Below are positions 7,228 to 64,000 of a stretch of 64,000 bases of DNA, in pieces. The position numbers and the translations under genes are program-made. Every line of letters begins with the position of its first letter. Position 1 is the stretch's first letter. A model generated the notes under the pieces. It saw only the letters and a program-made list of their open reading frames with translations, had not been told where the DNA came from and searched no databases. The stretch comes from Minisyncoccota bacterium (GTDB taxonomy: Bacteria > Patescibacteriota > Minisyncoccia > Phycocordibacterales > UBA9973): the NCBI GenBank assembly GCA_041664745.1, contig JBAYKD010000002.1, positions 6,126 to 70,125 of the forward strand, in the 5' to 3' direction.

Positions 7228-7284
7228 TAGGCAAAAAGAAAACCCGCAAGCGAGCTTCTTTTTTGCTACGCTGTCGCGGGTTTT
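7228..7284 (-). terminator. rho-independent terminator of the 7283..7879 gene
   Basis: A hairpin AAAACCCGCGACAGCG...CGCTTGCGGGTTTT (minus-strand sense) is followed by a T-run. Confidence 0.55.
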
Positions 7285-7879
7285 AATTAAATTTTAGACT
7301 GTAGCCTATTACAAACATTGGGATATCCAACGTATGATTATAGGTTACTTCGGTAAAGATTTTTGATTTTTCGCCAATAGAGAAGGTTCTCTTGGCTGAA
7401 ACAAACCAATTCATTGGATCTGTTCTAAACCATAGTACTGATCCGCCAATACGATAGTTTTTGAAAACAGTTATTCCAACTCCTTCATAAGAAAGGAAAA
7501 ATTCTGGTTTTGTTCCAGGACTAGTCAACTCTTTGTCTTTTCCGAAACCAACTCCATTCCAAAGCATTACGTCAATGATTCCTTTTTGGTACGTTATTTG
7601 TGGACCAGTCCAGAGAACATTTTTGTAAACGCCAAAACTCTCAACTATTTGGAAATTTTTAATTTTCTTTCCAATATTAAGAATTGCCCTGTCTGCATTG
7701 GCCTGGATAAAAAGTACTCTGTTTTTGCCATTTGAAAATGATACCTTAGTATCAAGTCCAGAAGTTAGAGCTGTTTTTCCAGATGAAATTGTAATATCAG
7801 AAATCTTGAATTCCTGTGCGTTGACTGTGATTGTCGAAACAATCATGATTACAAATAATAATCCTTTAAAATTTTTCAT
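7283..7879 (-). CDS. secreted beta-strand-rich hypothetical protein (small beta-barrel-like)
   Basis: It has a Sec-type signal peptide (MKNFKGLLFVIMIVSTITVNAQE). Hydrophobic and polar residues alternate throughout. The C-terminal strand is VIGYSLKFN. Confidence 0.45.
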   Translation of the reverse strand: MKNFKGLLFVIMIVSTITVNAQEFKISDITISSGKTALTSGLDTKVSFSNGKNRVLFIQANADRAILNIGKKIKNFQIVESFGVYKNVLWTGPQITYQKGIIDVMLWNGVGFGKDKELTSPGTKPEFFLSYEGVGITVFKNYRIGGSVLWFRTDPMNWFVSAKRTFSIGEKSKIFTEVTYNHTLDIPMFVIGYSLKFN

Positions 7880-8062
7880 TTGTTTGGTTGTTTTGATTTA
7901 TAATTATTGAACTTTCTTTATCTCTCTAAATAAGGGGAACAAAGAAAGTTCAATAAATATAACTAAACCAAAAATATCAAAGAACGATAAAACTACCTAT
8001 AGTATAGCATATTTATTGGTGGTTGTCAATGGGGAAAAGAAGTCTTGTTTCCCAATCCTTTT

Positions 8063-9097
8063 TTATTTAATTGTATTTATTTCAGTATAGAATTTATCTC
8101 TTCCTTTTTGTGTTAAGTCAGGATTGCCATGTTTATCAATAGGGACTTGATTTACATCAATCGCGTTTATTTCCATATCGGTAGTTTCTTTTAGTTTATT
8201 TATTGCTACTATTGAGTCTTCTTCATTTCCATTTATCACAATTCCTTTTGTTTTTACTTCTGGATGTTTCTCTTTTTCAAGTTTTTGGAATTTACTACCA
8301 CTTCCTACATCTCCAAGAGGGGAATCACCAATAATAAGAATTTTATCATATGGAATTTTTATTCCTTTTGCTTCTAATTGTTTTATTAGATATTGCATCT
8401 TATATTCTTTTTTTCCGGGAACGTCTGTATCTGTCGCACAATCTATAAAGGATTCTCCTAGTCCTGCATATTTACAGAGTGCATTTGCAAACTTTTTTGG
8501 ATTTGCTGTCATTCCCACTATTACTACTCCAAGTCTTTTATATAAAGCATTTAATTTATATATAGGTTGTATCTTTGCTTCATCAAAAAATTCTGGATTC
8601 TCTTTCGCTTGCTTCTCTACTGTGCTAGCTGCGATATCGTCAAATTTTTCTAATAGTTTATCGCATTCTATATGTAGAGGGTCATTCGTTTCATCAATAT
8701 GTTCTCCGTCTTTTCCGACAGCTAGAAATTCTTCTTCATATTTATCTGGATTTTTCCATTCCGTTTTTCCTAAATTATAAATAGCGTGCATTCTGTAAAG
8801 TTCACGCCACATTGTTCCTAGTCGGAAACCAGCCAAATGAACACGTCCAACTTCTTCAATTCCATCTAAGGCTACAGCATCTGGCCACATGGCTTTACGA
8901 ATCTCTTTATATGTAGGTTCAAGGTGGAGTAGGGTTTTGTCTATGTCTTCGAAAACAACGAGTGGTGGCTTTCCATCTTTATCAAGTCTAATTGAAAAGG
9001 ATTCAAAATTTCCATCAGCATTTTCTAGATTGGAAGTGAAAGATTTTCGTGTGTATTCGGGTTTGGGTTCTATGGGGTTATTTATTCCTTCATGCAT
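8063..9097 (-). CDS. HAD-superfamily hydrolase-like protein (paralog of 31041..32042)
   Basis: Start moved to MHEGINNP..., because the longer ORF N-terminus reads through a palindromic repeat. It has the HAD motif I DIDKT and the motif IV-like GDSPLGD. It aligns along its length with 31041..32042 (GFRLG..RE..RM..IYNLG..EW). Confidence 0.6.
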   Translation of the reverse strand: MHEGINNPIEPKPEYTRKSFTSNLENADGNFESFSIRLDKDGKPPLVVFEDIDKTLLHLEPTYKEIRKAMWPDAVALDGIEEVGRVHLAGFRLGTMWRELYRMHAIYNLGKTEWKNPDKYEEEFLAVGKDGEHIDETNDPLHIECDKLLEKFDDIAASTVEKQAKENPEFFDEAKIQPIYKLNALYKRLGVVIVGMTANPKKFANALCKYAGLGESFIDCATDTDVPGKKEYKMQYLIKQLEAKGIKIPYDKILIIGDSPLGDVGSGSKFQKLEKEKHPEVKTKGIVINGNEEDSIVAINKLKETTDMEINAIDVNQVPIDKHGNPDLTQKGRDKFYTEINTIK

Positions 9098-9136
9098 AAG
9101 TATATAGTAGCATAAAAAATCACGAGACCGTGAGAC

Positions 9137-9161
9137 TATAGCAAGGACCGTCCTTGCTATA
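9137..9161. repeat. perfect 25-nt palindrome TATAGCAAGGAC-C-GTCCTTGCTATA (TAGCAAGGACC family)
   Basis: Perfect dyad symmetry. The same motif occurs at 60665..60693 and 62695..62732, with half-sites at 60652..60664 and 63212..63223. Confidence 0.8.
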
Positions 9162-9286
9162 GTATGGCGGGAACGTGAGTACACTTATCGATCATTACAT
9201 GACCAGTATCCCAATTCGTTTCGGTTAACACCGAAAAACGAATTGGGCTTCGATTTCCGCACGCTTCATCCGCAGGGATGAAGCTC

Positions 9287-9340
9287 ATCTCCACATAAGA
9301 AAAAACCTCATCGGAATGAGGTTTTTTCTTATGTGGAGAT
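9287..9340 (-). terminator. 25-bp perfect inverted repeat / bidirectional terminator overlapping the tmRNA 3' end
   Basis: ATCTCCACATAAGAAAAAACCTCAT-CGGA-ATGAGGTTTTTTCTTATGTGGAGAT. The inner part is a classic A-tract / hairpin / T-tract. The outer 7 nt are complementary to the tmRNA acceptor 3' strand. Confidence 0.7.
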
Positions 9341-12182: not shown

Positions 12183-12185
12183 TTG

Positions 12186-12259
12186 TCCGTCCTCTAGGAT
12201 TTGAACCTAGGACCCCAGAGGTATAAGCTCTGTGCTCTAACCAGCTGAGCTAAGGACGG
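12186..12259 (-). tRNA. tRNA-Ile with anticodon UAU (reads AUA)
   Basis: Cloverleaf by hand: acceptor CCGTCCT/AGGACGG, D-arm GCTC-AGCTGGTTA-GAGC, anticodon arm CAGAG-CTTATAC-CTCTG, T-arm CTAGG-TTCAAAT-CCTAG, discriminator A. Confidence 0.8.
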
Positions 12260-28540: not shown

Positions 28541-28627
28541 GGAGGCGTGGATGAGTGGTTTAAATCAACAGTTTACTAAACTGTCGAACCTTTACCGGTT
28601 CCGTGAGTTCGAATCTCACCGCCTCCG
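28541..28627 (+). tRNA. class II tRNA with Ser-like architecture and apparent anticodon ACU
   Basis: Acceptor GGAGGCG/CGCCTCC, Ser-type D-arm, anticodon arm ACAGT-TTACTAA-ACTGT (perfect 5-bp stem, 7-nt loop), long variable arm CGAACCTTTACCGGTTCCG, T-loop TTCGAAT, discriminator G. Confidence 0.7.
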
Positions 28628-28663
28628 CAAAGTTTTTATCGAAGCAAATTATTAATTAATTAA

Positions 28664-30526: not shown

Positions 30527-31063
30527 ATGGCAAACGTAGAATTAACAAAAATACAAATTTTCAAAAAAAATATTTGGAAGCATTTATACAAATATTTTCC
30601 CTGGGTTCAAAAACACTTTTTGAAGTGGCATTTAGTATGGCACGAAAAGGGTCGCCAGCCTTATCATGTCGGATGGCTCGCACCAGGTAAAACCCTAGAA
30701 GAACTCGAAAAGCATTTACATAATGAATGGGGTTTCGGGAACCATTTCGTAGCATGGAAAGATAGTGGGCAAGTTCTTTCGTGGCGCAAGCTTGAAGATT
30801 TTGATAATCAATATCACATAAGAGTCTTTAAAGATGGCGAGATAAGAGGGCACCATGAATTCACCCCTGAGAGTAGGCCACTAGAGCACTTCGTTGAGAT
30901 TAACGAAGAACAAAGAATGGATGAATTTAAGAAATTTTTGGGAAGTTATATTGTAGAGAGAAAATATATTTCACATTTAAAAATAGACAGAAAGACAGCT
31001 CCTGATTCTGAAATTACAGTGGATGATCCACTAGACAAAAATGGAAGACACAGAAAAAATTAA
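30527..31063 (+). CDS. hypothetical protein (His/Trp-rich, no recognised family)
   Basis: 178-aa ORF that overlaps the downstream HAD-like gene by 23 nt, which suggests coupling. Confidence 0.5.
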   Translation: MANVELTKIQIFKKNIWKHLYKYFPWVQKHFLKWHLVWHEKGRQPYHVGWLAPGKTLEELEKHLHNEWGFGNHFVAWKDSGQVLSWRKLEDFDNQYHIRVFKDGEIRGHHEFTPESRPLEHFVEINEEQRMDEFKKFLGSYIVERKYISHLKIDRKTAPDSEITVDDPLDKNGRHRKN

Positions 31064-32042
31064 AAATACAATAAAGATTTATTCAGAACTTCCCGGGATT
31101 AATGGGAATTTCAGCTCGATTTCTATAACTCTCGGAGAGGATGGTACGCCCGCGGCTTTGGCCTTTTTTGATATTGATAAGACTTTGGCAGAATTGAAGA
31201 ACATCCATGGAGCAGCTATTAGGACTTTATTCAAAGAGCTTTTCGATAAAGAGTTTGAGGGGATAGAAGAAGTTTATTTTAAGGGCTTCCGCTTAGGAAA
31301 TTCATTCCGCGAATTTGACCGCATGAACGGGATTTATAATTTAGGTTTTAAAGAGTGGATTGATGAGGATGTCTATATTAAAGAACGGCTAAATCATAAA
31401 AAGAAGGAGATAGATAGTGATGGCAACGAGACCCATAAAATCGCCAAAATGTATCTCGATAGATACGCTATTATTGCATCAAAAATAGCGGAAGATATTT
31501 ATAGAAATGATAAAGAAGAATTTGAAACTTCAAAAATCAAGCCAGTATTTGCGCTCGCAAAGTTCTACCAAAGTATGGGGATACCAATGTTCGGCATGAC
31601 AGCCAATGGCAAAGACTTTGTCCATACTATTGCCAAGTATTTAGGCTTGTCAGAGTTATTTATAGATATAGCGACCGATGAAGACATGGTAGGAGGTGGA
31701 AAAGAAATAATAATTCCAAAACTTATTAAACGAATGGAAGATAAGGGAATTAAAATTTCAAAAGAGAAGCTCGTCATAGTAGGAGATTCACTTTTTGGTG
31801 ATATTGGTAGTGGTTATAGATTCAAAGAGAATGGGCAAGAAGTTTTCATTAAAGGAATCCTTGTTCTAAAAGACATGAATGAATTACAAGTAATGAAAAA
31901 TCAAATCGAAAAGAATAGTGAATTAAAAAAGATTATAGAGAATACTGATACAGAAGCTTTTATAGTAGAAAATGTAAAAACAGACGCAAACGGCACCCCA
32001 CTAATCATGGGGGACAAAAAGAATTTCTTAATTAAGCTTTGA
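31041..32042 (+). CDS. HAD-superfamily hydrolase-like protein (paralog of 8063..9097)
   Basis: FFDIDKTL (motif I), GMTANGK, and VGDSLFGDIGSG (motif IV-like). It is collinear with the 8063..9097 product. Confidence 0.6.
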   Translation: MEDTEKIKNTIKIYSELPGINGNFSSISITLGEDGTPAALAFFDIDKTLAELKNIHGAAIRTLFKELFDKEFEGIEEVYFKGFRLGNSFREFDRMNGIYNLGFKEWIDEDVYIKERLNHKKKEIDSDGNETHKIAKMYLDRYAIIASKIAEDIYRNDKEEFETSKIKPVFALAKFYQSMGIPMFGMTANGKDFVHTIAKYLGLSELFIDIATDEDMVGGGKEIIIPKLIKRMEDKGIKISKEKLVIVGDSLFGDIGSGYRFKENGQEVFIKGILVLKDMNELQVMKNQIEKNSELKKIIENTDTEAFIVENVKTDANGTPLIMGDKKNFLIKL

Positions 32043-59805: not shown

Positions 59806-60606
59806 ATGATAATAAAAGAACTGTTTAATCAAGTTAGAGATTTTTTAGGAGAAAATAATGAATTAGTTGAGTCAACGAATATTGCTATAAAAGAACGCAT
59901 GATCTCTCCTTTTTATGGATATTTTATTTGTTCATGGTTTCTTTTTAATTGGAAAATTTTTTATGTAGCTTTTTTTGTAAGTCAAGATAATATTATTTCA
60001 CAGACTGGTTTATTAAGACATCAATATTTACAAAAAATATTTCCTATTTTAGGAAGTCTAGACTTTTGGTGTTATTTTGTAATATATCCTTTCGTTTCAA
60101 CAATAATTTTCTTTTGGATTTTTCCATATATAACTAGGGTTTATTATAGAAAAAGTTTAAAGAACGAAAAAGCTCTTAAGAAAATTCAAATTCAGGAAAG
60201 CATAGAAATTAAAAAAGAAGAGAAAAAGTTAATACAAGAAGAAACTCGTATTATAGATGAAAATATAAGAAAAGCAAAGCAAGAGAAAAGAGCGCAAACA
60301 GAGACACCGGAAATATTATGGGAAAACGAATTTGCAAATTTCAGAAGAAGTTCTTTATTTAGAAAGTTTGATCACATATTAGATTCTATTTATAAATATG
60401 CTGGCTTAATTAGAGTTAAGGGTAATTTTTATGGTCAATATGAGTTTGAATTAGAACGTGATATTTTAATTTTTGCCGACTCTAACGATCTTATAAAAAT
60501 TAATGGTGATTCTATATTATTTACCGACAAGGGAAAGTTTTTTGCAAAAAGATATTCTCAAATAAAAGGAGGTGTTATTGTTACAACAAATACAGCACAA
60601 GCGTAA
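59806..60606 (+). CDS. hypothetical membrane protein with coiled-coil segment
   Basis: 266-aa ORF with 3 TM helices in the N-terminal half, then a KE-rich helix and a small C-terminal domain. Confidence 0.5.
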   Translation: MIIKELFNQVRDFLGENNELVESTNIAIKERMISPFYGYFICSWFLFNWKIFYVAFFVSQDNIISQTGLLRHQYLQKIFPILGSLDFWCYFVIYPFVSTIIFFWIFPYITRVYYRKSLKNEKALKKIQIQESIEIKKEEKKLIQEETRIIDENIRKAKQEKRAQTETPEILWENEFANFRRSSLFRKFDHILDSIYKYAGLIRVKGNFYGQYEFELERDILIFADSNDLIKINGDSILFTDKGKFFAKRYSQIKGGVIVTTNTAQA

Positions 60607-60664
60607 ATTTATTTAATTTGACTTTAAATTTTTATGAAAATTTTTTAAGTATATAGCAAGAACC

Positions 60665-60693
60665 TATATAGCAAGGACCGTCCTTGCTATATA
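60665..60693. repeat. perfect 29-nt palindrome TATATAGCAAGGAC-C-GTCCTTGCTATATA (TAGCAAGGACC family)
   Basis: Perfect dyad, preceded by an extra half-site TATAGCAAGAACC at 60652..60664. It lies between convergent genes. Confidence 0.8.
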
Positions 60694-60843
60694 AAGAAGC
60701 AAAAAATCCTCATAAGGGTTTTGGAATAATGGTAGAAAAAACTTGGTATTGGTACGAAAATTGGTTAGATTTTGTAAAAAAACACTGCAAAGATAATAAG
60801 CAACTTTACTTGCAAACTAATATTAAGGATTACATTTATTAAT

Positions 60844-61695
60844 TTAAAGAAAAAGATTTTTTTGACTCAATTCTTTTTCTTGTTTCTCTTTTAATTCTTT
60901 TAGTTCATTTTTGTGGCGTTTCTTTATTTGTTCAATATCTTCTGCTGGGGGAAGATCTTCAGGAAAGATATCCGTTTTAGTTAAAGCCTCTCTGATATTT
61001 TTATTATTACTTTTGTGTTCCTCATTTATTTTATTAACACCATAAAGATTCTTTTTGCGAGTATTTTCTGTTGTCATAGCAGTTGCTAGATCTTTTGCTT
61101 TTAGAGTTACATTTGGAAGAAAGTTGGCTAAGGGTTTGTTAGCGGGAATATCCATTTTTTCTTTTAGTCTTAGGGTTGATAATCCACCAAATAATTCTTT
61201 ATCTCCCTCACTTCGAATTATTGCAATTCCTTTATCATCAACACCTTGAGAAAATAGAGTAAAAGCAAAGTCTTTCTCTGTAATTTTTAATTTATCACGT
61301 GTTTCTAGACGTGCAAATTCTTCCATTTTTGCCTGTAAAACCTCAAGACGTCTCGTCTGTGTAACGAAATAGGCTTGAGCAAATGCAATCTCTTGTCTGT
61401 GAGGGTCGCCATTTATAGCTATTAAATAACAAGCATAACGTCTTAATTTAATATCATCAATACTTTTCTCTTCTGTTGGGTATTGATCTAGAAAATGATT
61501 TTCTGGATTTCCTCCTGCGTTTAAACAGGCCAATTTAGCTTGTTTAATAACAGGAATAAAGGTTTCCCACTTAGAATAGCCCAATGCAAGATAAAGTTCT
61601 CTTGCGTACCAAAAATCAGCCCCAGATTCATCTGTGTGTCTTATATCATCTAATGTCACAAAAAGCATTTTTAGTTGCCCAGATTCCATATTCAA
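60844..61695 (-). CDS. dinD: DNA-damage-inducible protein D-like (DinD / Bro-N-type)
   Basis: Collinear with the DinD pattern: ...WYARELYLALGYSKWETFIPVIKQAKLACLNAG, LRRYACYLIAINGDP, and AQAYFVTQTRR. Confidence 0.7.
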   Translation of the reverse strand: MNMESGQLKMLFVTLDDIRHTDESGADFWYARELYLALGYSKWETFIPVIKQAKLACLNAGGNPENHFLDQYPTEEKSIDDIKLRRYACYLIAINGDPHRQEIAFAQAYFVTQTRRLEVLQAKMEEFARLETRDKLKITEKDFAFTLFSQGVDDKGIAIIRSEGDKELFGGLSTLRLKEKMDIPANKPLANFLPNVTLKAKDLATAMTTENTRKKNLYGVNKINEEHKSNNKNIREALTKTDIFPEDLPPAEDIEQIKKRHKNELKELKEKQEKELSQKNLFL

Positions 61696-61897
61696 TAATT
61701 ATACCTGATCTAACTAAAAATACCACCCGTTTAATGCAATAAAACATCTTTCACTTTTGTCACATTTTAAGTCGCTCGAGATACATAGTTTTAGTATAAT
61801 AAAAGTAACCCAAATAGCATTATGGGGTAATAAATTAAAAGGTCCTAACTCGAGACGGCTAGCAGACTTTTTAAGTCTGTTTTGGTATAATAAACTT

Positions 61898-62260
61898 ATG
61901 CAAAAACTAATAAAGATTGATAATATAATGTTTTACGTAAAAGACCTTGATAAATCTATTAATTTTTATTCAAATATTCTTGGGTTGGAACAGATTTGGA
62001 AAGATGAAAAAAATAAAATGGTTGGATTTGTTTTTCCAAATACAAAACAAGAAATTGTTATTCATTCAAATCCTTCTATTTCAAATCCAGATTTTAGTTT
62101 CTTGGTTTCAGATGTTGAAGATTTTGTAAAGAATTATAAAGAAAATGGATTCAATGTTATAAAAGAACCTTTTAATGTTAGGTGTGGAAGGTTTGCCATA
62201 CTAGCAGATTTAGATGGAAATGTTATAAATATAATTGATTTTTCTTTGAAAGAAAATTAA
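61898..62260 (+). CDS. VOC/glyoxalase-family protein
   Basis: Start at ATG 61898, downstream of the TGGTATAAT extended -10. Motifs IDNIMFYVKDLDKSINFYSNILGLE and a C-terminal GRFAILADLDGNVI. Confidence 0.75.
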   Translation: MQKLIKIDNIMFYVKDLDKSINFYSNILGLEQIWKDEKNKMVGFVFPNTKQEIVIHSNPSISNPDFSFLVSDVEDFVKNYKENGFNVIKEPFNVRCGRFAILADLDGNVINIIDFSLKEN

Positions 62261-62263
62261 TTT

Positions 62264-62686
62264 ATGATAAAAGTTGATTTTTACGATTTAAATACAATAG
62301 AAGAAGACAAACTTGGATTTGCTGTTATTATGGCTAGATATAATAACAAATGGATATATGCTAAACATAAACAAAGGGATACTTGGGAGATTCCAGGTGG
62401 ACATAGAGAAAATCTTGAAAAAATAGAAGCGTGTGCTTTTAGAGAATTAGTTGAAGAAACAGGAGCAGATAAATTCAAACTAACTCCATTATGTATTTAT
62501 TCAGTCGATAAAGATGGAGTAAAAGATTTTGGCCAGATATTTTGTGCTGAAGTTGAAAATCTAAATAAGTTACCAGATTCCGAAATAGAAAGAATAGAAT
62601 TTTTTGATAATATACCAGATAATTTAACTTATCCATTAATCCAGCCTTTTATTTTTAAAAAAGCCTTAGAAATTTTAAAACAATAA
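62264..62686 (+). CDS. NUDIX hydrolase
   Basis: Nudix box GGHRENLEKIEACAFRELVEETGA. Confidence 0.85.
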   Translation: MIKVDFYDLNTIEEDKLGFAVIMARYNNKWIYAKHKQRDTWEIPGGHRENLEKIEACAFRELVEETGADKFKLTPLCIYSVDKDGVKDFGQIFCAEVENLNKLPDSEIERIEFFDNIPDNLTYPLIQPFIFKKALEILKQ

Positions 62687-62694
62687 AAATACAA

Positions 62695-62732
62695 AGTAGC
62701 AAGGACCAAAGTATCAAGGACGGTCCTTGCTA
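62695..62732. repeat. split TAGCAAGGACC palindrome (11-bp arms, 14-nt spacer)
   Basis: The arm TAGCAAGGACC (within AGTAGCAAGGACC at 62695..62707) pairs with GGTCCTTGCTA (62722..62732). Extra CAAGGAC copies lie at about 62716 and 62747. Confidence 0.75.
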
Positions 62733-62773
62733 TCCTTATCTTATACAAGGACGATTTATGTTATAATAAATTC

Positions 62774-63211
62774 ATGACTGAAAGATTTAAATACATTGGT
62801 TCATCATATTTGATTCTAATTAAGGATAATAATATCTTGCTTTTAAAGAGAGCCAATACAGGCTTCATGGATGGATATTATGGACTTCCGTCTGGTCATT
62901 TGGATGGTGGCGAGACAGCTAGAGAGGGAGGAGCTAGGGAAGTAAGGGAAGAAATTGGGGTAAATATAGATCCGCTTGATTTTAAGGTTGTTCATATTAT
63001 GCATAGAAAAGGAGAAAATGATGAACGTATAGATTTCTTTATGACAACAGAAAAATATACAGGCGAAATAAAAAATTGTGAACCAGAAAAATGCGAAGAA
63101 CTCAAATGGTTTCCATTAGATAGTCTACCCGAGAACATAATTCCTTACATTAAAGAAGCCATTAAAAATTCCCAAGAAAATGTTTTTTATTTAGAATGGG
63201 GGTGGAAATAA
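62774..63211 (+). CDS. NUDIX hydrolase
   Basis: Nudix box GHLDGGETAREGGAREVREEIGV. Confidence 0.85.
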   Translation: MTERFKYIGSSYLILIKDNNILLLKRANTGFMDGYYGLPSGHLDGGETAREGGAREVREEIGVNIDPLDFKVVHIMHRKGENDERIDFFMTTEKYTGEIKNCEPEKCEELKWFPLDSLPENIIPYIKEAIKNSQENVFYLEWGWK

Positions 63212-63297
63212 AGTAGCAAGACCATTCTTACTAGGTTTCAGTTACTCTCGTTTGAGTAGCTGGGTTTTTTATCTAAAAATAATGATATAATTAATCC

Positions 63298-63939
63298 ATG
63301 AAATTAACCTTCAAATACAATCAAGATAAAGATATTTGGTGTCTATTAAATAAAGGTAAGAGTTCTATTAATTCTCCATACCCAACAAAAGTATATAAGG
63401 AATTAGAGAAAGAATTTGGAGAGAATCCTTCCGAAAAAGACATCAAATTATTTGTTGAAAAGTATATTTCAAACAATAATTTGAATATAAAAGATTTCGT
63501 AGAAAAATATCAAAAAGATTGGGATAGTATTTCGGGTGAATATCAAAAAATAGCAGAGAAAATATTTAAAGCATCTTTACCCAAAGATATAATTGCTTAT
63601 CTTACTATAAATAACAGATGCCCTTACAACATAAAAGATAATTTTTTCTTTGTGAGTATACCAGATGAATTGCACCTAAGAAAGATAGTGATGCATGAAT
63701 TATGGCATTTCTATACATGGTATAAATTTGGCTATATATGGGAAAGTAAAATTGGGAAAGAAAAATATAATGAATTGAAGGAATCGCTTACTGTATTACT
63801 AAACATTGAGTGTAAAAATTTATTATCCGAAAGCATTATTGATAAAGGGTATCCACAACATAAAGAATTAAGAGAGAAAATACTTAAGTTATGGGAAAAA
63901 ACAAAAGACATAGACAAAGTTTGGGATAGTTTAATTTAA
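63298..63939 (+). CDS. hypothetical protein with HExxH motif (possible zinc metallopeptidase-like)
   Basis: 213-aa ORF containing VMHELWHFY. Confidence 0.45.
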   Translation: MKLTFKYNQDKDIWCLLNKGKSSINSPYPTKVYKELEKEFGENPSEKDIKLFVEKYISNNNLNIKDFVEKYQKDWDSISGEYQKIAEKIFKASLPKDIIAYLTINNRCPYNIKDNFFFVSIPDELHLRKIVMHELWHFYTWYKFGYIWESKIGKEKYNELKESLTVLLNIECKNLLSESIIDKGYPQHKELREKILKLWEKTKDIDKVWDSLI

Positions 63940-64000
63940 ATTATTAACTTAGATTTTTAACTATTATTTTGATATAATATAATTATGGAAATAGAATTTT

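Follow-up and report, generated by a model that had tools for sequence, protein, structure and literature searches.

The locus analyzed here raises the question of why the same short palindrome recurs in the spacers of a small bacterial genome, and whether it is a binding site for a regulator, a terminator or a substrate for recombination. The locus is a 64,000-nucleotide stretch of contig JBAYKD010000002.1 from a Minisyncoccota bacterium (GCA_041664745.1), referred to as the window. The initial annotation described perfect palindromes and half-sites in accessory-gene spacers and favored a dimeric DNA-binding protein or a cruciform or recombination site; it held that enrichment near particular gene families, a co-varying regulator or recombinase, and a position at the boundaries of variable regions would bear on the matter. 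The window is AT-rich (~35% GC) and carries a tmRNA and nine tRNA genes, and an Rfam search at gathering thresholds returned only the tmRNA and tRNAs.

Analysis of the window showed that the recurrence is real. The full sites are three palindromes of the form TAGCAAGGAC-N-GTCCTTGCTA, located at 9135-9163, 60665-60693, and 62712-62732 (copies 1, 2, and 3). When up to one mismatch was allowed, TAGCAAGGAC matched the window 10 times against 3.0 ± 1.7 times in shuffled sequences, a count attained by no shuffle out of 100. With three mismatches at most, the 21-mer TAGCAAGGACNGTCCTTGCTA matched three times, compared with zero in all 100 shuffles. Copy 1 had been described as a perfect 25-nt palindrome at 9137..9161; it is indeed perfect, but its length is 29 nt. 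The perfect 29-nt copy 2 with its preceding half-site, and the split version at 62695..62732, could be read in the sequence as described, the latter being a direct half-copy ahead of a full palindrome in which a single position is mismatched. The half-site at 63212-63223 does contain the arm sequence, but it is not isolated, as it forms the left part of a decayed palindrome. All features are listed in the following table.

Palindromic features of the window (positions are those of the window; the label REP anticipates the reading preferred below)
Feature	Position	Strand	Sequence and remarks
REP copy 1	9135..9163	.	perfect 29-nt palindrome ACTATAGCAAGGAC-C-GTCCTTGCTATAGT; read directly, exact core match
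Half-copy ('stutter') of left arm and flank	60652..60664	+	TATAGCAAGAACC; begins 15 bp ahead of copy 2's left arm
REP copy 2	60665..60693	.	perfect 29-nt palindrome TATATAGCAAGGAC-C-GTCCTTGCTATATA
REP copy 3 and stutter	62695..62732	.	direct half-copy TAGCAAGGAC (62697-62706), then palindrome 62712-62732
Partial core	62744..62754	+	ATACAAGGACG; downstream of copy 3; read directly
Decayed REP copy	63214..63233	.	TAGCAAGACC-ATT-CTTACTA; weak fold, z -1.6

All window copies are intergenic, in agreement with the initial annotation, and the adjoining genes encode a HAD-like hydrolase, a Bro-N domain protein, a glyoxalase, and two NUDIX hydrolases. Copy 1 is bordered by the HAD-like gene, which starts at 9097 on the minus strand, and by a conserved candidate small RNA that runs from 9164 on the plus strand. 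Copy 2 occupies the gap between two convergent genes, 59806-60606 (plus) and 60844-61695 (minus, Bro-N domain). Copy 3 starts 9 nt past the stop codon of one NUDIX gene (62264-62686) and ends 41 nt ahead of the other (62774-63211), and the decayed copy begins 2 nt past the stop codon of the latter; beyond this copy stands a distinct canonical terminator (63237-63264 plus a T-run).

The one-nucleotide center had been regarded as unfavorable for a simple RNA terminator hairpin. Folded as single-stranded DNA, copy 1 gives a hairpin whose stem spans 13 bp and whose loop has 3 nt (-12.3 kcal/mol, z = -9.3), so the center is no bar to a hairpin. Copy 2 yields a hairpin of -10.9 kcal/mol (z -6.6). 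The palindrome of copy 3, TATCAAGGAC-G-GTCCTTGCTA, has one arm mismatch and a half-copy 15 bp ahead of it, and its right arm can pair instead with this outer half-copy (11 bp, -12.8 kcal/mol).

The distribution of the motif was determined by scanning AGCAAGGACNGTCCTTGCT (18 fixed bases) against 185,579 species genomes (one genome per species, 596 Gb), for which we estimated ~9 matches by chance. At least 118 genome blocks carried the 19-mer core; among the matches listed, ~100 were labelled Patescibacteria, 11 were unclassified 'bacterium', and seven had other labels. At least two of these seven are tiny contigs and probably mis-binned; the seven include Nocardia, Mycoplana, Lachnospiraceae, and Armatimonadota, where the site falls inside a called ORF. 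The identical 18-base core was present in metagenome-assembled genomes (MAGs) labelled Nomura-, Taylor-, Staskawicz-, and Zambryskibacteria, Paceibacterota, Minisyncoccia, and Saccharibacteria. A literature search for the motif string returned only unrelated primer matches.

Comparison of the sites revealed what is constrained in the repeat. The center base is free (T in 40, G in 38, A in 35, and C in 30 of the 143 sites in the 118 blocks listed). The flanks beyond the core vary from site to site and are commonly still complementary, giving a longer stem. In 75% of sites, AGCAAGGAC is preceded by a T, which pairs with an A following the right arm, and the position beyond it shows no constraint. 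In 29 of 138 sites in other genomes, the arm end and its local flank are repeated in tandem with a modal period of 11 nt, an arrangement that we term stutter; the outer end of these copies is fixed and the inner end variable. Because the local flank is repeated with them, the half-sites are duplications and not independently selected boxes, and the half-sites of the window are examples of the same stutter. Tandem duplications larger than the palindrome were also seen in the downstream flank of locus L123 and the upstream flanks of L139, L146, L105, and L033; one comprises ~90 nt of a transposase 3' end plus the repeat, and the others consist of two to three repeats of the palindrome and promoter-proximal sequence.

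Gene context was evaluated for 145 sites (the 143 in listed blocks and two in the window), with ORFs called by a simple rule. Tandem genes flanked 61 sites, divergent genes 15, and convergent genes 13; a further 23 fell within a called ORF, 18 overlapped the end of a gene, and 15 were at a block edge. Sites in tandem gaps were located a median of 46 nt from the upstream stop codon and 89 nt from the next start, and many sites overall lay within about 5-30 nt of a stop codon; four copies in the window and its contig start 2-31 nt after stops. Such proximity to the upstream gene would be expected if the hairpins were primarily RNA elements at gene 3' ends, either T-less terminators or mRNA-stabilizing stem-loops, with any association with a transposase being secondary, and side effects of this kind are known for classical REPs (PMC3733652). 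However, the flanks show no T enrichment after the hairpin, canonical terminators often stand separately beside the copies, before or after them, and 15 sites lie between divergent genes. We therefore consider a primary role in RNA improbable, and two further observations given below, the use of the repeat as a promoter element and its co-variation with an enzyme, tell against it as well. A plain intrinsic terminator, which the initial annotation had kept in view, was rejected on account of the missing T-tract and the separate terminators nearby.

The stop-proximal position also argues against an operator. The initial annotation had favored a dimeric regulator, and the perfect dyad with its free center base, the extra half-sites at 15-bp or 11-bp spacing, and the overlap of the site with the -35 element of a transposase gene (see below) are features that the operator of a dimeric transcription factor for accessory or stress genes could share. 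To characterize the neighbors, 150 genes within 200 nt of a site were compared with Pfam (E ≤ 1e-4). They matched 99 families, among which Y1_Tnp alone clearly recurs (nine members) and the others shown have one to four members; housekeeping genes such as those for EF-G-type GTPases, GrpE, ArgRS, trigger factor, and ClpP are included. The flanking genes are thus functionally unrelated and do not resemble an accessory-gene regulon. In addition, some sites separate convergent genes or directly follow stop codons, the site-specific complementary flanks extend the palindrome in a way that a protein operator does not require, the half-site repeats are duplications that carry local flank, and no candidate regulator co-occurs with the sites. 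Taken together, these data make an operator very improbable. A LexA/SOS box, considered because of the Bro-N/DinD-like neighbor, and other known operators were rejected because no regulon appeared in the neighbor census. The one family that clearly recurred among the neighbors is the Y1/HUH transposase (PF01797).

The transposase was first noticed as genes starting MLRKDPF..., located ~30 nt downstream of several sites. The protein has ~225 amino acids and matches Pfam PF01797 (Y1_Tnp, IS200-like) at 32.1 bits against a cut-off of 23 bits; its score for the REP-associated tyrosine transposase equivalog NF047646 of NCBIfam (REP_Tyr_transpos) is 24.7 bits, below the cut-off of 80. HUH and YIHxNP motifs are present, and H86-F87-H88, Y147, and N151 are invariant in 31 homologs. 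An hhalign comparison placed HFH, Y147, and N151 on H59-M60-H61, Y115, and N119 (YIYIN) of Escherichia coli RayT (E = 1.4e-3), the residues whose catalytic roles have been described (PMC3479197). Sequence and profile searches of the PDB returned nothing relevant, and an AlphaFold2 model built from 31 close homologs was too poor for use (pLDDT 42.6).

A tblastn search detected a homolog of this transposase in 15 of the 118 listed blocks. In these 15, a palindrome lies up to ~60 bp upstream of the gene and, in most, another lies at or just past its stop codon; at the palindrome-selected loci L044, L107, L013, L099, L067, and L058, the palindrome abuts both gene ends. The resulting hairpin-transposase-hairpin unit is compact (~740 bp). 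The family comprises at least 970 clusters at 90% identity, named 'transposase' by their sources. The window occupies positions 6144-70143 of a 119-kb metagenome contig (ENA ERZ27249449 k141_1677615). Over the ~80 kb of this source contig that we examined (the window and blocks L119 and L202), the search for a transposase gene was negative, which leaves the cognate enzyme of this genome putative.

As the loci above had been reached through the palindrome, an unbiased test was made with 80 metagenome loci picked by the protein alone, 74 of which have both flanks. In 59 of the 74, a 12-mer or longer is common to the upstream and downstream flanks, and it was recognized as a hairpin by eye where inspected. 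Within the clade of at least 56% identity, the hairpin core is GCAAGGAC, GCAAGAAC, in which the change is compensated in both arms, or GCTAGGAC. The stems of the clade of 40-47% identity have very different sequences (for example, CACAGGG-TTC-CCCTGTG and CAAAGG-TTTAA-CCTTTG), and most keep an ..AGG / CCT.. apex. The hairpin sequence co-varies with the transposase clade, which is what a specific protein-hairpin relationship predicts. A primary role in RNA leaves this co-variation unexplained. In the close relatives L131 and L136, the outer stem of the downstream flank differs and is self-complementary in each (TTCAGCAAGG... and GAGACTCTCAGCAAGG..., respectively), a hint that some templated process, and not independent mutation, homogenizes or extends the arms.

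The upstream copy stands in a fixed relation to the transposase gene. At 32 of the 38 loci compared, a TATAAT-like -10 hexamer follows the outer right-arm end, TTGCnn, at a distance of 16-18 nt, or of 19 nt at one locus (mode 17); the repeat therefore supplies the -35 element of a predicted transposase promoter, a placement that also speaks against a primarily 3'-terminal RNA element. The distance from the end of this hexamer to the ATG is 6 nt at 29 of these 32 loci (transposase loci L121-L160), implying a leaderless transposase mRNA. We infer that hairpin extrusion, or binding of the enzyme, at the -35 element would shut off the transposase's own gene. The window copies showed nothing comparable. 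A promoter scanner found no canonical -35/-10 pair overlapping any of them, and at the outward TTGCTA arm ends inspected by eye, no -10 hexamer stood 17 nt away. The TGCTATAGT on both sides of copy 1 is a sequence match to an extended -10 and nothing more, and the promoter of the HAD-like gene proposed at 9137 was accordingly not borne out.

Since the transposase is flanked by the same hairpin on both sides and the hairpin co-varies with the transposase clade, we interpret the sites as REP elements of a REP-RAYT system. The palindromes are most probably REP-type repeats, the non-coding partners of a RAYT-like Y1/HUH transposase that is widespread in Patescibacteria. The system is an unusual form of a known kind of selfish or domesticated DNA and not a regulator binding site. 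Dispersal of the repeat away from the transposase, a feature of REP-RAYT systems, is evident in the 103 of 118 listed blocks without the gene and in the intergenic position of most sites. The cruciform or recombination-site reading of the initial annotation was therefore correct in kind, the palindrome being a likely substrate for a Y1/HUH single-strand transposase. The initial annotation had also set a regulator or recombination site apart from generic REP elements scattered at hundreds of copies. Generic REP elements are essentially what we found, except in number: solo copies near transposase loci occur at a low density of six in 192 kb, and the total looks like tens per genome, not hundreds.

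The proposed mechanism draws on homology with E. coli TnpA(REP) and the IS200/IS605 transposases. Where the DNA becomes single-stranded, for example at a replication fork, each copy would fold into a hairpin with a stem of 9-13 bp or longer. The transposase would recognize the conserved apex ..CAAGGAC-N-GTCCTTG.. of the folded strand and cleave it a short distance (a few bases) beyond the stem, with formation of a 5'-phosphotyrosine link. Rejoining of the strand elsewhere could then allow copies to spread, duplicate, or be deleted. The stutter copies may be footprints of this cut-and-rejoin process, in which a cleaved end is joined to a 3' end stalled in the hairpin, or they may have arisen by slippage. 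The window copies are passive members of the repeat population, concentrated in a stretch of accessory genes, and effects on neighboring genes, through an RNA 3' hairpin or promoter fragments, would be secondary.

Comparison with the REP/BIME system of E. coli and its RayT (TnpA-REP, b0228) revealed both similarities and differences. Both have a Y1/HUH enzyme in which the HUH motif and the Y-x-x-x-N helix align, a gene flanked by the hairpin repeat, and short extragenic palindromes dispersed mainly after genes. However, the stems are perfect here and imperfect in E. coli, the copy number here is apparently lower (tens rather than hundreds), and the protein is ~60 amino acids longer at its C-terminus (224 vs 165 aa) and does not conserve H123. 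E. coli TnpA(REP), whose structure with bound REP is available (PMC3479197), requires a GTAG/GTGG tag, whereas no such unpaired 5' tag occurs at the foot of the hairpin here: the T at -1 pairs with the A at +1, and -2 is free. In other clades, GC, TC, or CT precedes CAAG and is also paired. REPs have been described as species-specific (PMC6006769); in contrast, the core found here is common to many labelled lineages.

The putative single transposase locus flanked by repeats, the non-autonomous repeat population, and the slowly evolving transposase recall the Pseudomonas REPIN-RAYT systems described by Bertels and Rainey (PMC3116915, PMC5581495). REPINs, however, are doublets of two short REPs with a spacer, whereas the element here is one long perfect hairpin with a loop of 1-3 nt, and its hosts have genomes of roughly 0.7-1 Mb. 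Small palindromes mostly between unidirectional and convergent genes, downstream of coding regions, are also characteristic of the GTAG- and CGTC-tagged REP superfamilies (PMC3733652); the repeats here differ from these in having no conserved unpaired tag.

The IS200/IS605 elements (IS608, ISDra2) share Pfam PF01797 and hairpin ends, which in the present system would likewise be recognized as single-stranded DNA. IS200/IS605 elements carry different, imperfect left and right hairpins on one strand, insert beside a target of 4-5 nt, occur as multiple whole copies, and often include tnpB. The solo palindromes might accordingly be leftovers or miniatures of an autonomous IS200-like element that moves as a unit and spreads horizontally, rather than a stably inherited REP population served by a single-copy domesticated transposase. 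The compact ~740-bp unit fits such an element, no further copy lies within ±6 kb at 14 of 20 long transposase loci, and horizontal spread could account for the presence of one identical core in many lineages. Against this, most copies are solo, the gene being absent from 103 of the 118 listed palindrome blocks, and MAGs with several blocks hold it in only one block among the matches listed. The transposases are highly conserved (72-79% identity in the best 120 of at least 970 clusters), and most of these clusters occur on only one or two contigs. The same perfect palindrome stands on both flanks, unlike the distinct left and right ends of IS200/IS605, and no second large transposase-type gene was seen beside the transposase in the loci inspected. 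Moreover, two transposases of ~67% identity (L089 and L145) are both next to a shared neighbor, a tRNA gene. An autonomous element is thus unlikely.

The setting of the copies on the source contig raised a further possibility. The contig holds seven to eight palindrome copies in the ~80 kb examined, including one upstream of the window (L202 3646-3680) and three downstream (L119 14279, 14869, 15779), and at least six of the seven to eight are within ~9 kb rich in short same-strand genes. From 61757 to 64000 and on through L119 8601-18553 there is a run of ~19 short genes, all on the plus strand, with at least five REP copies scattered among them; four of the genes encode NUDIX proteins, others a glyoxalase and Maf, and many have no Pfam match. 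The layout of this run resembles a cassette array, and no integrase was seen in it.

An attC site is an imperfect hairpin with R/L boxes and extrahelical bases, and it neighbors an intI integrase. An integron-like array with the palindromes as attC-like sites would have as its cassettes the small same-strand genes found at 61.7-74 kb, including the four NUDIX genes and the glyoxalase. The clustering of at least six sites in ~9 kb, several directly after a short same-strand gene of typical 'cassette' function, would agree with this, as would a similar single-gene spacing in block L071. However, the precomputed Pfam annotations of called genes contain no integrase-family match in the ~80 kb, the stems are perfect and have neither extrahelical bases nor R/L boxes, the same hairpin occurs singly beside housekeeping genes, and it flanks a Y1 transposase rather than a tyrosine recombinase. 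The integron reading was rejected for lack of an integrase annotation and because of the perfect stems, and we regard attC-like sites as extremely improbable.

A bolder extension of the REP-RAYT interpretation is that the hairpin and the Y1 transposase are an ancient co-evolving pair across much of Patescibacteria, and that the enzyme also moves single genes bracketed by two hairpins. The bracketing seen at the transposase, in which one hairpin precedes the ATG by ~40 nt and a second lies at the stop codon, recurs at the NUDIX gene 62774-63211 and in the arrays of L071 and L119. We give this extension only a slim chance of being right; if it were, REP pairs would be a cassette-shuffling device for accessory genes in tiny genomes.

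To our knowledge, REP-RAYT systems have been studied almost only in Proteobacteria, where the repeats are species-specific and have a GTAG guide. The related system proposed here, in ultra-small and gene-dense Patescibacteria, has a core common to many lineages, no guide tag, and a repeat that is the -35 element of a leaderless gene. A literature search of incomplete coverage returned no paper linking REPs or RAYTs with Patescibacteria. If confirmed, the system would allow a widespread repeat that now goes unannotated to be annotated by a simple rule, would supply a natural series of hairpin-enzyme pairs that co-vary, for studying how HUH enzymes read DNA hairpins, and might mark or drive accessory-gene turnover.

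The window from 5.4 to 12 kb is syntenic with a Candidatus Nomurabacteria MAG (L082), and copy 1 lies at a break in this synteny: 7283-9163, comprising a 198-aa ORF, the HAD-like gene, and the repeat, is replaced in L082 (3104-5280) by other genes and a different REP. The position at a variable-region boundary that the initial annotation suggested checking was observed in this one case. The segment from a CsoR-like gene to the candidate small RNA is wholly different in the two genomes, and each version contains a REP. In block L112, a REP is also present at the same position beside the conserved small-RNA block. The HAD-like gene itself has a paralog of 39% identity at 31041-32042 of the window.

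The candidate small RNA directly beside copy 1 is ~130 nt long (9164-9292, plus strand) and continues to a terminator at ~9290-9335. It is conserved and structured, with homologs in L112 and L084 and two in L082. Among the five sequences, compensatory changes affect 20 of 38 predicted pairs, and G-U pairs favor the plus strand. Comparison with Rfam gave no match at E ≤ 1. In both the window and L082, it is convergent with the tmRNA gene, and a bidirectional terminator is common to the two.

Three smaller features were noted. Between copy 1 and the start codon of the HAD-like gene, a small terminator-like hairpin, TCACGGTCTCGTGA followed by a T-run, is located at 9120-9133 on the minus strand. 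A putative 37-codon ORF (MVEKTWYWYENWLDF...) occupies 60729-60842 on the plus strand between copy 2 and the Bro-N gene; a homolog search found none beyond the same contig. Finally, ARAGORN identified a tRNA-Ser with anticodon ACT (28541-28628, plus strand) and a tRNA-Ile with anticodon TAT (12185-12259, minus strand), both of which are unusual anticodons.
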